Below, piece after piece: positions 45,349 through 54,139 of a DNA stretch of 64,000 bases. Numbering within the stretch: position 1 is the stretch's first letter; each line of letters begins with the position of its first letter. Source of the DNA: Eledone cirrhosa (Eukaryota); the NCBI GenBank assembly GCA_964016885.1, contig OZ024754.1:1426001-1490000 (forward strand), in the 5' to 3' direction. Under the pieces are notes generated by a model. That model made no database searches. It saw only the letters and a program-made list of their open reading frames with translations, and was not told the origin of the DNA. The position numbers and the translations under genes were made by a program.

Positions 45349-45840
45349 TAGAGCTTGAAACGTGCTTCCCCGAGTATGGTTTGCTAATTTGCTGTGGAAC
45401 TAACTCTTTATCGAACTCGTCCTTTCGTGTGAGTGCCCTACTTACTACGGATATGGATATATATATATATATATATATATGTATATGTATATAGATATAT
45501 GTTTATGTATACAGGTATGTATGTATGTATGTATGTATGTATATACACATACTCGCAACCAGTATATATAGTCATATATATATATGAGAGAGAGGGAGAG
45601 AGAGAGAGAGAGTTGGGTCTTTGGTGTAAATGTCCACATCGGTCCCTTGTTAACAATCGTAAATATATTTCATTATCATCCAATATCGAAGAAGTCAGTC
45701 AATGTGGCTGTCTGTTGGTTTCATTGATATGTGTTTGAGACAACAGACACACCATATATCGTATTTTCTATAAACTATGTTTGATAACTACAGATCCCGT
45801 GGTGTATAACCATCGATGACACCCTAAAAAATGAACGATA

Positions 45841-45898
<58 letters not shown>

Positions 45899-45900
<2 letters not shown>

Positions 45901-46098
45901 CGAAGGAAAAGTGGTAAGGAACCAGGTGGACCATAACGCACCAAAGTACTCAATACTTAGGGTAGTAGAGTGGGTAATAGGAACGAGTAGGACCCCGACG
46001 GCTGAGCTCAAGCCGCTTCGACGGCCAATTCTGGACTCAGTCCAGAATTGGTCGTTGAAGCGGCTTGAGCTCAGCCGTCGGGGTCCTACTCGTTCCTA
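45899..46098 (-). mobile_element. Family A foldback element, copy 4 (near-perfect ~60-bp-arm hairpin)
   Basis: taggaacgagtaggaccccgacggctgagctcaagccg...cggcttgagctcagccgtcggggtcctactcgttccta; (TA)n on both sides. Confidence 0.9.
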
Positions 46099-46214
46099 TA
46101 TATATATATATATATATGAATGTATGTATAGTATATTTGGCAATATACTGTATGTTTAATTAAAAACATTTAGAAGACCAATACTAATACCATATATATA
46201 TATATATATGGAAA

Positions 46215-47805: not shown

Positions 47806-48153
47806 GATATTGGACTCTCCCGACCCTAAGGTCGTGGGTGAGAGTCCTGGAATGGTTGGCTCGATGTTGGACTGTCCCGACCCTAAGGTCGAGGGTGAGA
47901 GTCCTGGAAGCGTTGGCACGATGTTGGACTGTCCCGACCCTGAGGTCGAGGGTAAGAGTCCTGGAATGGTTGGCTCGATGTTGGACTGTCCCGACCCTAA
48001 GGTCGAGTGTGAGAGTCCTGGAATGGTTGGCACGATGTTGGACTGTCCCGACCCTAAGGTCGAGGGTGAGAGTCCTGGAATGGTTGGCACGATGTTGGAC
48101 TGTCCCGACCCTAAGGACGAGGGTGAGAGTCCTGGACCGGTTGGCACGATGTT
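47806..48153. repeat. 57-bp minisatellite x6
   Basis: gatgttggactgtcccgaccctaaggtcgagggtgagagtcctggaatggttggcac. Confidence 0.97.
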
Positions 48154-48607
48154 ATATTCTTGAGAATACGTTGTTTTTCAGGAGAGGATTGGGGCCTGTT
48201 TCATTAAGACACCCCGATACCCCGCCCCATCAATTTCATGTGAGGTCAGCTAACCCTGCACATAATTCTCAGCTCTATATTTAATTTCATTATCTCATAT
48301 TAAAAAGAAAACTCACGGACTAGATACATTCTATCTAGGGCGGATAAAATTCCCGAGATCCATGGACGAGTTCTCTCCAGCGGTCTCTGTCCCTCATCAT
48401 CGCTGCCATGTCCTGTATCTCTAAGTGACCAGTCTCTGTCAACCTATGTCAACCTAGGTCTCCATCTTCTAGTGTGTCAACTAAATACATTGGCTCTATT
48501 TAATTGCATCCATTTCTGTTCCGAGTTTAAATCCTTCGAGATTGACTTTTCTTTACTGCTTTTGTGGATTGATAAAATATATTTCTCCTTTTATATTTGG
48601 TTTAATG

Positions 48608-48825
48608 GACCTTCGTCGGTTTCGTCGATGCATGTTCCAAATATTTGACCAACTGAACAGGCTGCTTAGGAAATTAAAGTATGTGTGGTTGAGTATTCCA
48701 ATCATTTATGTTCCATTGTCAATATTATATACACACGTGTGTGAGATTTTCTGACAGGTGCTCTCGGGGAGATTCAGCGCGCCACAGTGTGTGACAAGAC
48801 TGAATGTTTATATTACAGGTACAAT
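48608..48825 (-). mobile_element. SINE family 2 body
   Basis: Reverse-complement similarity to 47460-47638. Confidence 0.7.
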
Positions 48826-48834
48826 CTATCCGAC

Positions 48835-48985
48835 GGCCTCTTACACGGTTTCCGTCTACCCAATATCACTCCTAAGGCATGAGTCCACCCGAGGCTATGT
48901 TAAATGAGAGTTGCCTAAGATGTCATGCAGTGGGATCGAACCAGGGACCCCATTATTGCAAAACAAACGTCATAACCATTCACTC
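48835..48985 (-). mobile_element. SINE family 3
   Basis: gtttccgtctacc..cccgaggctat..gtgggatcgaacc. Confidence 0.75.
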
Positions 48986-49020
48986 ATTCTGCGTCCACTA
49001 TTGGTTGAATAGTCGGCGAA

Positions 49021-49423
49021 TTGGCAGAGTCGTTAGAACGTCGGATAGAATGGCAGTCGTTAGAACGGCGGATAGAATGGCAGTCGTTAGAACGGCGGAT
49101 AGAATGGCAGAGTGGTTAGAACGTCGGATAGAATGGTAGAGTGGTTAGAACGTCGGATAGAATGGTAGAGTGGTTAGAACGTCGGATAGAATGGTAGAGT
49201 GGTTAGAACGTCGGATAGAATGGTAGAGTGGTTAGAACGTCAGATAGAATGGTAGAGTGGTTAGAACGTCAGATAGAATGGTAGAGTGGTTAGAACGTCG
49301 GATAGAATGGTAGAGTGGTTAGAACGTCAGATAGAATGGTAGAGTGGTTAGAACGTCAGATAGAATGGTAGAGTGGTTAGAACGTCAGATAGAATGGCAG
49401 AGTCGTTAGAGCGTCTGATAGAA
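49021..49423 (+). repeat. 29-bp tandem array (~14 units) derived from the SINE A-box region
   Basis: tggtagagtggttagaacgtcggatagaa; two units are 27 bp; runs into the SINE body. Confidence 0.92.
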
Positions 49424-49550
49424 TGCTTTGTGGTATTTGTTCCGGCTCTCTGCTCTCTCAGTTCAAATCCCGACTAGATCAACTTTGCCTTTCATCCTTT
49501 CGAGGTCGATAGATATATAAAAAGTACCAGTCAAGTACTGGGTCGATTAT
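49395..49550 (+). mobile_element. SINE family 1
   Basis: agttcaaatccc..ctttgcctttcatcctttcgaggtcgat..gtaccagtc. Confidence 0.85.
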
Positions 49551-50159
49551 TCCTCTATATCTCTTTCTCATGCCCCCCCCCCCCCACTCTCTCTCTCTCC
49601 CTCTCACTTTCTATCTTTCTCTGGAAGAAATCCTCTGTACTCAGACCTGGAGAGGGATGGGCTCCGCCAGGCTTTAAAATGCCCAAGAAAAGGTCGTCTG
49701 TCAATACGGCGCCCCTACGACTCTATCAGGTGTTACGAGACTATACCATATGCCATATATTGGTTGAATACAACATAAATGTTTTATATAATTTAATCTT
49801 TAATCTTTTGTGCTTTTCACTTGACCCCGACGTGATCGACTTTGATTTTTTCATCTACAAATGGTTGATAACACACACACGCAGTAATCTATTGAGTTAG
49901 ATTTAATTAATCCTACATGCAGCCAACCGCTCCAATAGTTTATGGTATTGTAATAACCTGAGAAACCAATACCATTATCTTTCATTGACAGAATTCTAGG
50001 ACCATGGGACTAAAATGTTTTCTGCTGTATAGTTCTGTTTCTTTACGTTCCATTTACACATCGTGCTGAGTTCTAATTTGCCTTTCATACTTCCGTGATC
50101 GATATGGTTGCAACGTGCAACGTGAATGAGTACATGTGGGTGTATATATATATATATTA

Positions 50160-50272
50160 ATTAAAATAACAGATTAAGTTTAAGCAAAGAATCGCTGCTT
50201 TCACCCTTAACGGGATCTTCTGAAGGGTGAAAGCAGCGATTCTTTGCTTAAACTTTAATCTGTTATTTTAAT
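50160..50272. repeat. ~49-bp-arm inverted repeat between TA tracts
   Basis: 50160-50208 vs 50223-50272, one indel, 14-nt loop. Confidence 0.9.
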
Positions 50273-50304
50273 AAATAAATAAATATATATATATATATGT
50301 ATAT

Positions 50305-50485
50305 AACGAAGGAAGTATGGTAAGGAACCAGATGGACCATAACGCACCATAACTTAGGGTAGTAGAGTGGGTAATAGGAAAATGTCTAACCCCGACGGAA
50401 GAGCTCAAGCCGTTTCGACGGCTATTTCTGGACTAAAATAGCCGTCGAAACGGCTTGAGCTCTGCCGTCGGGGTTAAACATTTTC

Positions 50486-50488
<3 letters not shown>
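50305..50488 (-). mobile_element. Family A foldback element, copy 6
   Basis: Same tail and hairpin, (TA)n flanks. Confidence 0.88.
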
Positions 50489-50527
<39 letters not shown>

Positions 50528-50622
50528 CACACACACACACTTCTATGAAAGTGCATGTTAAAGGATGATGTTTTTGTCAGTCTGTATGAAACACAAAATA
50601 GTAAATACGTCAACAGCCATGC

Positions 50623-51412
50623 GTACATAGGTCAGTCTTCTCTATGTATATATGTCTACATAGGTCAGTCTTCTCTATGTATATATGTCTACATAGGTCA
50701 GTCTTCTCTATGTATATATGTCTACATAGGTCAGTCTTCTCTATGTATATATGTCTACATAGGTCAGTCTTCTCTATGTATATATGTGTACATAGGTCAG
50801 TCTTCTCAATGTATATATGTCTACATAGGTCAGTCTTCTCTATGTATATATGTCTACATAGGTCAGTCTTCTCTATGTATATATGTCTACATAGGTCAGT
50901 CTTCTCTATGTATATATGTCTACATAGGTCAGTCTTCTCTATGTATATATGTCTACATAGGTCAGTCTTCTCAATGTATATATGTGTACATAGGTCAGTC
51001 TTCTCTATGTATATATGTCTACATAGGTCAGTCTTCTCTATATATATATGTCTACATAGGTCAGTCTTCTCTATGTATATATGTCTACATAGGTCAGTCT
51101 TCTCTATGTATATATGTCTACATAGGTCAGTCTTCTCAATGTATATATGTGTACATAGGTCAGTCTTCTCTATGTATATATGTCTACATAGGTCAGTCTT
51201 CTCTATGTATATATGTCTACATAGGTCAGTCTTCTCTATATATATATGTCTACATAGGTCAGTCTTCTCAATGTATATATGTCTACATAGGTCAGTCTTC
51301 TCTATGTATATATGTCTACATAGGTCAGTCTTCTCAATGTATATATGTCTACATAGGTCAGTCTTCTCTATGTATATATGTCTACATAGGTCAGTCTTCT
51401 CTATGTATATAT
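50623..51412. repeat. 33-bp minisatellite x~24
   Basis: tacataggtcagtcttctctatgtatatatgtc. Confidence 0.98.
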
Positions 51413-51723
51413 GGGAATAAACATCACCTATGACAACCAGTTTAATATAAGACAGGTTCAATTCTCTTATGTAGGAGCACTTCGGATTTTGAAAGGGCCA
51501 GTCTAGATGTAATATATTCAACTATCTTCTGTGATATTCCTACCTTGGGACATAGTTAATGTTACACGTGTTTGTGGAGTTCTCACCCATTTACGCTATA
51601 TTTAAGCCTCTACAATATTAAATATTCAGGTATTTAATGTACCGTTAAGAGTGAGTGGAATACTGAGACCATGGGATAATATTGAATGAGTAGGTCGTTA
51701 TTTCTCTGTGAGACTGTATATAT

Positions 51724-51783
<60 letters not shown>

Positions 51784-51812
51784 AGATCAAAAGATGGTTA
51801 AAAGAGTTCCAA

Positions 51813-51882
51813 GTATTTTATTATGCGCATTTCAAAAACAAATATCATCATGAGATGATATCTGCGTTTTCATCAGATCAAA
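51813..51882 (-). ncRNA. Inverted copy of the hammerhead with a weak stem I
   Basis: Reverse complement tttgatCTGATGAaaacgcagatatcatctcatgatgatatttgttttGAAAtgcgcaTAataaaatac. Confidence 0.6.
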
Positions 51883-51926
51883 CTTCACTATTCACAAGTG
51901 TTTTTTAACCTTCTTATCATGTATCC

Positions 51927-51999
51927 CTATTTTATCTGATGAAAACGCAGATACCATCTCATGATGATATTTGTTTTTGAAATGCGCATAATAAAATAG
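51927..51999 (+). ncRNA. Type I minimal hammerhead ribozyme
   Basis: Stem I CTATTTTAT/ATAAAATAG, core CTGATGA (51936-42), long imperfect stem II, GAAA (51979-82), stem III T-GCGC-A, UH=TA, predicted cut after 51990. Confidence 0.82.
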
Positions 52000-52119
52000 T
52001 TGGAACTCTTTTAACCATCTTTTGATCTTATATTATATATACTCCAGTCCTACAAACTGTAGAGTGCTACTTATCCGATATTTGCATTGCTTTATTGTGC
52101 TACAATAAAACTCACCTCC

Positions 52120-52251
<132 letters not shown>

Positions 52252-52267
52252 TACACATATATATATA

Positions 52268-52432
52268 TCATTTAGTTTTGCGAGGTTTTTTATATGAAAT
52301 CGTGTGTCGAAACAGATATTGTTATATTTGGGGAGGGTCATATTTGCGTAATATTGCCAGAATTAATAACAGAACACACTCACTGTTTGGTTGGTTTTCG
52401 CTTCTCGCTGTCTTTTATATATATATATCTGC
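52268..52432 (-). mobile_element. Family C repeat tail (long form)
   Basis: atattgttatatttggggagggtcat..cactcact.tttggtt; extension shared with 62233-62258. Confidence 0.75.
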
Positions 52433-52591
52433 GATCTAACTTACTCGGTCCTCAATGTTGCCATTGACTGATGTGTTTACATATTTATACACGAAAACCA
52501 TGTATATGTGTGTGAGAGTGTATAACTATGTATCTATATTTTCACTCACATAATATTCATATAAATATATACACGTAAAAATAAAGTATAC

Positions 52592-52653
<62 letters not shown>

Positions 52654-53774
52654 ACGCGCACGCACACACACACACACACAAAACGTACACACACACAAAA
52701 CGTACACACACACATACACACACACATATAGGCACATATGTGTGTGTGTATGTATGTATACTTTAATTCCTCCGGACCATCATCATCATCAGAGCTCATT
52801 GGCATCACACGCCACACCCCGGACACATCCAAATCTCTCTTATATATAGTCACACATTTCAACACAACCTGATCTCAGTTTGACAATCGCCACAGACAGA
52901 CGAATGCGAGAAAGTTCTCCAACCCATGTGAACCAAGAATCTCTCAAATTCTTCCCACCGAAGTTAACAAAGAACTTACTGGATCTACCAACTCATAATA
53001 TTATAATATTGTATTATAACATTAAATCAAACAAATTTTTTAACACTACAAGTGAAGTCATTCTTTTCCCTTTTTTTTCAAATATATATATATATATATA
53101 CATATATACACAAAAAATATTAACAGAACCTTAACACCAAAATATTCTCTTACTGCAACCATAGGAGGCTGATGTATTTCTTTGGGACTGAAAAGCAAAG
53201 CTGTGCACGGGAATATTTCTGTCCAAAAATTTAAGGAATACCGTCTTTTCCTGTTCAACGAAGCCTGGGTCTTGTTAAGCCAGCGATCCCAAAGCATCTT
53301 CGTGCATAGAGCAGAGAAATATACTATTTTTAAATAACTGCTCAGAATACTACATCTTCTGTACCTAGATTATATCTAACCACATTTGTACCTATGTTTA
53401 TTGGTCGAATCGGACTTGTTTGTAAACCTCTAAGTGACGATCTGGAAAAAAAGTTGGAGTTTTCGGATAGAACAAGTGAAAAGTTAACAGGTTTGTTTCC
53501 AATATATCAGTAAGTTCATCAGACAAATAAGATATATATATGTATATATAGTAAACATGGTTGACTTATATGTAATAGAAGAGACTAGAATAACTAGACA
53601 TTCAGAGACGTGTTACCTTACAACCTTAGGCCCTTGTGAACTGGCTTACCGGCCCTTGTCAACTGGCTTACCTTCTTTTATTCTTCGTCTCTGATCTGGC
53701 TTGCTTAGCAAGGAACATGTTACTATATATATCTAAGTGATAATCTAAAGAAGGCGCGGTTTTCAAATATAATG

Positions 53775-53955
53775 GACCTTCGCCGGTTTCGACGACTAAT
53801 GTTTCAGTTGTTTGATTACTGGAACAGCCTGCTCATGAAATTAACATGTAATAATTGGTTGAGTATTCCACAGAACACGTGTATTTTTAATGTGATTCTC
53901 AGGGAGATTCAGAATGATACTATGTGATAAAACTGGCTCTTTTAATCACAGGTGC
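53775..53955 (-). mobile_element. SINE family 2 body
   Basis: gccggtttcgacgac..aacagcctgctcatgaaattaac..ctcagggagattcag. Confidence 0.72.
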
Positions 53956-54139
53956 AGTTAGTCCTTCTGACGGGTATTTAAACAGTTTCTGTTCCTCCAG
54001 TTTCCCTGATAAGTTATGGGTCGACCTGAGGCCATGGTCCACGCAGTGTGGTCGAATCAGGGACCTAATGATTGCGAAGAGAACTTCATAGCAATTTGAC
54101 CATGTAGTGGCTACTGTTTTGCAATAAAAAAAACCTAAT

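Follow-up and report, generated by a model that had tools for sequence, protein, structure and literature searches.

The hammerhead motif at 51927..51999 (+ strand) of the window, the 64,000-nucleotide stretch of the Eledone cirrhosa genome analysed here, is very probably that of the pLTR of a Penelope-like retroelement (PLE) with Hydra-clade motifs, present in the window as a head-to-head foldback that is predicted not to fold as a ribozyme, with arms derived from capped, uncleaved mRNA and a ribozyme that would work only as a double hammerhead. As a ribozyme it is unremarkable, since hammerheads are already published for Hydra-clade pLTRs; what it adds is the mechanistic record held in the junctions of its copies. 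The family stores the ends of its templates in thousands of such junctions and so names a testable start site. How PLEs rebuild their pLTRs, and what the ribozyme does for them, are standing questions (PMC2377424, PMC8557442).

Direct reading of the window bears out most of the preliminary description, which had been made from the letters alone. The two strands of stem I (51927-35 / 51991-99), the core CTGATGA (51936-42), the GAAA (51979-82) and the AUA triplet (51988-90) are in place on the + strand, with the predicted cut between 51990 and 51991, and the long imperfect stem II is a 36-nt hairpin (51943-78) in which 14 of 16 positions are paired. CUGANGA, GAAA and NUH within three stems, open at stem I, are the marks of a type I hammerhead and all 12 core bases are intact; from direct reading, descriptor match and family alignment, the motif is a genuine full type I hammerhead core, for which self-cleavage is predicted. 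Two details needed amendment. The nine pairs given for stem I exist in the window copy, but the family-wide stem has 8 bp; the ninth pair depends on a G at 51999, where 80 of 80 sampled copies carry C and a few others, such as L017 and L026, also carry G. The stem III sequence is palindromic as claimed, but the palindrome is longer than TGCGCA: it is the 8-nt ATGCGCAT (51982..51989, +), which takes in A15.1 and U16.1 and would form stem III between the two molecules of a double hammerhead. The window copy also has a near-private C at 51954 (T in 78 of 80 sampled copies), which breaks one pair of stem II. With respect to detection, a hammerhead descriptor matched the window at 51927-51999 only and none of 100 local shuffles, while the suggested comparison with Rfam models drew a blank: a scan of 48000-56000 up to E=5 gave 102 matches, none of them a hammerhead and all merely miRNA-like hairpin noise. 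A pattern search of the window with a gap of ≤35 likewise misses the motif, whose spacer is 36 nt.

The motif lies within one arm of a 112-bp inverted repeat of 97% identity (51771-51882 / 51930-52041). Aligned to the natural copy L031, the right arm (51880..52041, +) is a 5'-truncated pLTR copy that starts at -111 from the cut site and, with a tail of ~80 nt found on this arm only (52042..52121, +), extends to ~+130; in full-length copies the tail runs on into the leader before the ATG. The inverted repeat and alignment identify the left arm (51771..51878, - strand) as an inverted pLTR copy reaching from ~-57 to +45, with a short 3' end and no tail. A second hammerhead copy on this strand (51814..51882) has a complete core and palindrome (51823-30), and the 5' strand of its stem I is cut at the head-to-head junction. 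The insertion target is represented by a TA-rich microsatellite upstream (51716..51780), whose boundary with the arm is not resolvable, and by a directly readable (TA)n microsatellite downstream (52120..52268), in which a target-site duplication cannot be read. A tandem retrozyme was considered and ruled out, as the window holds a single head-to-head pair and one descriptor match.

That the motif belongs to a retroelement hammerhead stands; self-cleavage at the window locus does not fare as well, since the predicted probability of stem I pairing in a transcript through both arms is ~1e-51. The right arm folded alone also has a minimum-energy structure without stem I (probability 0.003). We consider it most likely that the window copy is an inert by-product in which, by prediction, the 112-bp duplex keeps the ribozyme from folding. 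A ribozyme active at this locus, and possibly used by the host, would draw on the intact core and the nine pairs of stem I, yet it would have to overcome a foldback of -161 kcal/mol, the near-private mismatch in stem II and the lack of any same-strand partner for dimerisation detected by the descriptor in the window, and a by-eye review of 181 listed open frames brought up no obvious host gene, all of which make it very unlikely. The short inverted-repeat form in a TA context might also suggest a MITE-like DNA transposon with terminal inverted repeats that resemble a hammerhead by chance; this is refuted by the same sequence occurring in direct orientation around RT/endonuclease open reading frames, and the arms are variably 5'-truncated, so that we give the idea practically no credence.

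Other repeats share the window. Near-perfect foldbacks at 50172-50260, 50386-50477 and 55401-55513 account for miRNA-like Rfam noise, and related short repeats around 30454-30660, 34561-35052, 45778-46156 and 55222-55860 possibly represent another retroelement family with inverted copies. A tandem array of 33-nt units (~50640-51415) lies just upstream of the element, and a TA-rich microsatellite of ~10 kb with 4-7% GC occupies ~5850-16000.

The retroelement origin proposed in the preliminary description is confirmed by full-length copies, in which pLTR hammerheads flank an RT/GIY-YIG open reading frame. Twelve copies were taken for their long frames, and the full-length anatomy comes from the five in which same-strand hammerhead pLTRs stand on both sides of the frame: a pLTR with hammerhead and tail, an ORF of ~790 aa, a 3' UTR and a second pLTR, in a unit of 3,555-3,623 nt. 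The distance from cut site to ATG is 215 nt in four of the five long copies and 197 in one. A single ORF combining RT with a C-terminal GIY-YIG-type endonuclease, recognised by motif only, together with partial-tandem pLTRs, an inverted 5'-truncated copy and an optional tail at one end, are features of PLEs. The protein carries RWI (in RLRWIA), DKT, YRDD, CxCx5C (CNCPVKNKC), a GIY-YIG-type core with one Cys, CxxC (CNLC) and CxH (CLH), with YRDD and IYEC...YFG in an 808-aa frame; DKT is present in copies L077-L081, L083, L085 and L086 and mutated in L076. An RWK-like motif, DKT in place of DKG, a CxCx5C linker, CxxC with CxH, a C-terminal endonuclease and insertion into (TA)n, without CX2-5CxxC or CCHH, agree with the diagnosis of the Hydra clade by Craig et al. 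2021 (PMC8557442), as does a type I hammerhead with self-complementary stem III near the 3' end. By sequence, then, the element is a Penelope-like retroelement, with its clade assigned from motifs and a by-eye comparison with Hydra-1_Obim rather than from a tree. Assignment to Neptune was ruled out by the absence of CX2-5CxxC from the protein. Pfam searches with ORF pieces and whole ORFs returned no relevant hit, the best RT match in a PDB profile search with the ORF had E=1.7, and the nearest named protein relative, from Argonauta hians, is 37% identical. An Asn-rich insert at residues ~570-665 of the L076 ORF, between RT thumb and linker, varies in length among copies; Asn-rich inserts are described for rotifer Penelope (PMC3846280). 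At L038:6078-7499 (- strand) lies another PLE ORF, which has diverged but shares the CxCx5C linker and RT motifs.

Conservation of the fold was examined in the first 100 of 12,291 matches anchored downstream of the cut site, all on contig C1, of which 80 span the motif without gaps. Sixty-five of these 80 keep all 12 core bases. At the base of stem II, A-U is found in 57 of 80 copies and G.U in 22 of 80; A-U is the family norm and is shared by the published Hydra-1_oBim, one of the 'canonical' hammerheads listed in File S2 of PMC8557442, which does not support the suggestion that this pair is a weakness. Pairing is preserved in all eight stem variants that are common in the family (p=0.004 at 0.5), every one of them a Watson-Crick/wobble transition.

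Sister families, represented by 113 distinct motifs in 12 groups among the loci examined with a pattern that leaves stem II unconstrained, keep the layout with different letters. Eight of the groups occur two or more times. Among these, 22 of 24 cells at the base of stem II hold a pair, with A-U/G-C swaps, a score equalled or exceeded by 26 of 2000 shuffles; the corresponding figure for the inner palindrome is 15 of 16, equalled or exceeded by 89 of 2000 shuffles. Self-complementary palindrome variants occur, and 11 of 12 sister groups have a pyrimidine mismatch at pair 4. Stem I pairs in 46 of 48 cases across families; with columns that show almost no variation, it does not rise above shuffles (2000 of 2000 at least equal it). 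The covariation asked of genomic copies is thus present for stems II and III, whereas stem I could contribute little. A hand-picked alignment of seven rows, two of them partly out of register, has five pairs changed on both sides, a result reached by 0 of 500 shuffles. One close sister (L172:455-526, - strand) has a G-C base of stem II and a closed fourth pair (U-A), which makes it a ready-made comparison for what A10.1-U11.1 does. Several further families, whose hammerheads have other stems (L004:1140-1261, L005:990-1222, L013, L131, L142, L187 and L210), form the same head-to-head pairs, clustered in the same TA tracts.

Folding predictions favour two molecules over one. The monomer forms stem III with a probability of 0.001, and the minimum-energy cofold of two copies is a double hammerhead at -39.5 kcal/mol, compared with -14.0 per monomer. 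The dimer is the predicted active form of the ribozyme, in line with the palindrome-driven dimeric folding of the preliminary description. The minimum-energy fold of a natural leader (L079) lacks stem I, and therefore even master copies may need the help of a protein. Such poor folding would agree with reports that other PLE hammerheads cleave weakly or with the help of proteins (PMC4209133, PMC11167929).

The family is abundant in a 3.0-Gb, microsatellite-rich genome. The core with the start of stem II has 19,280 exact genomic copies, compared with 2 for a reversed control, and a looser pattern without the stem II constraint, which takes in sister families, finds 66,151 motifs against 0 in its control. 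This scale raises the interest of the case: at least 66,151 motifs, or 22 per Mb, of a kind whose window representative escapes Rfam. The axolotl genome is about ten times larger than this one. Its hammerhead count is given as 126,247 (PMC7229834). The 256-bp element as a query brought up 1,026 candidates, of which 40 were scored, and a 128-aa piece of the RT brought up 42,973, of which 150 were scored. Only 246 matches read from tail into leader, so 5'-complete copies must be a small minority. Fragments of the family also turn up, at low depth, in contigs of runs X4 and X6, which have two other organism codes (seen at L079:2633); some of these fragments start at the -124 site discussed below, and cross-sample carry-over is possible.

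The 3' ends of arms fall at two fixed points, ~+45 to +50 and ~+130 from the cut site, with 59 short ends and 41 with tail among the first 100 of 12,291 matches; in 10 of 11 head-to-head pairs exactly one arm carries the tail. At the other end, 23 of these 100 arms start between -130 and -120 and one starts at the cut site. Across the genome, counting only starts preceded by two bases foreign to the family, 2,018 arms begin at -125 and 4,930 at -124, compared with 206 at a control site 4 nt downstream (-120), and 5,585 arms read through; the window copy starts at -111, not -124. A pile-up of 5' ends at the cleavage site, as a fossil of cleavage in vivo, was sought and is not supported: beyond the single arm in 100, at most 129 starts fall there genome-wide against 79 for a reversed-pattern control, and 30 of these matches on inspection comprised 13 true junctions, 15 small indels or nearby junctions and 2 unrelated sequences. 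By eye, in the first 100 listed of each, the base before the -124 start is G in 42 and A in 15, compared with G in 13 and A in 55 before the control start. The sequence of the partner arm can itself account for about 18 of the 42 G, and the contrast persists once these 18 and 17 point mutants are dropped (p=0.001). When RT copies a cap, the signature it leaves is an extra G. The -124 site resembles an initiator. These observations fit run-off at a capped, uncleaved leader, a product resembling retroviral strong-stop DNA, and the near-absence of cut-site ends argues that linear cleaved RNA is rarely copied. In the D. virilis Penelope, promoter and start lie within the pLTR. A literature search, with Repbase, Dfam and subscription papers outside its scope, brought up no mention of a pile-up at the cap end or of strong-stop transfer in PLEs and no prior description of this element family in the text accessible to it.

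In the mechanism that we propose, the element mRNA would begin, capped, at -124, the RT/GIY-YIG protein would nick (TA)n on both strands, and reverse transcription would begin inside the RNA at the two 3' points. Priming in the 5' leader would end in run-off at the cap or in an earlier stop, and two short cDNAs joined head to head would give a foldback of the window type; we infer that the short arms come from such priming in the leader of capped, uncleaved mRNA. The two 3' classes and the one-arm tail have their match in PAc, for which internal priming at two sites, extension on both strands and use of uncleaved RNA were shown in vitro (PMC11167929). The ribozyme would be active only as a double hammerhead formed through ATGCGCAT, for example when the two pLTRs of one transcript, full-length or tandem, pair with each other; the linear RNA that its cleavage yields would seldom serve as template. 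Upstream pLTRs of tandem copies behave differently from the arms: 0 of 30 start at -124 and 15 of 30 reach -151 or further (p=0.002). The template of long copies would have to continue past -124. It could be a ligated circle, a tandem read-through transcript, or a cDNA transferred to the 3' pLTR. The last of these can be extended to a conjecture we hold only tentatively, in which the thousands of arms whose start at -124 follows an extra G represent strong-stop cDNAs that became integrated, the cDNA primed in the leader of capped, uncleaved mRNA and copied as far as the cap normally being transferred to the homologous 3' pLTR, as in retroviruses with R, to regenerate the tandem pLTR, while failed transfers would become hammerhead foldbacks edited as double-stranded RNA.

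For the long copies, a route through circles is quite possible, if short of probable. Dimeric cleavage at both pLTRs followed by re-ligation would give a unit-length circular RNA, and RT started at the tail would pass the ligated cut site, read through past -124 and regenerate tandem pLTRs, only the -124 arms coming from uncleaved mRNA. A model of this kind was proposed in PMC4209133; it would account for how far upstream pLTRs extend, something that a single pass along a capped linear monomer cannot produce, and for the hammerhead layout kept across sister families, and ligation would also erase cut-site ends. Against it, ribozyme mutants of PAc insert unaffected in vitro and no PAc RNA-seq reads end at the cut site (PMC11167929), and Naiad PLEs thrive without canonical hammerheads (PMC8557442). 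The route is compatible with our preferred explanation, from which it differs in giving the ribozyme a central role. The pile-up at -124 might, on the other hand, record no RNA 5' end at all and be due to one or a few non-autonomous master foldbacks that were amplified, or to joining at CATATG microhomology. Among the 2,018 junctions at -125, the same symmetric palindrome does recur in most of the first 100, but the 4,930 at -124 have many partners, including tail-only arms and plain (TA)n, the -124 end is common to several subfamilies, and the excess of G before the start speaks against the idea. Microhomology alone is not the cause, because the longer 8-nt palindrome yields just 43 symmetric junctions genome-wide, and on balance we find this origin improbable. 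We are more doubtful still of self-priming on an antisense template in place of the joining of two sense-templated cDNAs. It was proposed for rotifer Penelope (PMC3846280) and would suit the frequent palindromic junctions; here, however, many junctions are non-palindromic, and the arms differ in sequence and 5' extent and usually in their 3' end, one being tailed and the other not.

Set against known systems, the element has its closest likeness in Hydra-clade PLEs and departs from them in several respects. For these, PMC8557442 gives stem II of ~3-7 bp, units 'generally <3 kb' and tails of 30-40 nt, compared with 14-15 bp, 3.55-3.62 kb and ~80 nt here; none of the Hydra-clade hammerheads listed in its File S2 has this sequence, and the tens of thousands of copies also set our element apart. 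With the min-HHRs of metazoan PLEs it shares a type I hammerhead within pLTRs, a palindromic 15.2-16.2 region and, as predicted here, dependence on a dimer. The term 'minimal' applied in the preliminary description is nevertheless inappropriate in the sense of Cervera and de la Pena 2014: min-HHRs are defined in PMC4209133 by an absent or vestigial helix III, an extra base after A9 and a conserved G10.1-C11.1, whereas our motif possesses a palindromic helix III, lacks the extra base between positions 9 and 10.1, and has A-U or G.U at 10.1-11.1, a stem I of 8 bp and its long stem II. Opposite-strand pairs of min-HHRs 100-700 bp apart are described in the same paper, and between them PMC4209133, PMC8557442 and PMC3846280 already report opposite-strand pairs, tails and inverted truncated copies. 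Like PAc, a Poseidon PLE of Anolis, the element has two genomic 3' ends, which in PAc match two internal RT start sites, AT-rich targets and, by inference here, uncleaved RNA as template (PMC11167929). It belongs to a different clade, its hammerhead lies 215 nt upstream of the ATG and not in the ORF, and it has a fixed 5' end upstream of the ribozyme that is not described for PAc in the accessible text of that paper. Non-LTR retrozymes are likewise non-coding repeats of high copy number with a PLE-related type I hammerhead; they are head-to-tail tandem repeats, each with a hammerhead, that release circles, whereas the window copy is a head-to-head pair of truncated pLTRs (PMC7229834; bioRxiv 10.64898/2026.07.22.740005).

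Six changes in the L079 locus (2673, 2720, 2722, 2755, 2758 and 2764) reach 6-19% in run X5, which has the same organism code as X1, another sample and 88 Mb of contigs, and stay at ≤0.12% in X1. Every one is A>G or T>C (p=0.016 at 0.5), a hint of A-to-I editing of foldback double-stranded RNA, and possibly they are alleles of another individual. One of the six is U16.1 read on the antisense arm.
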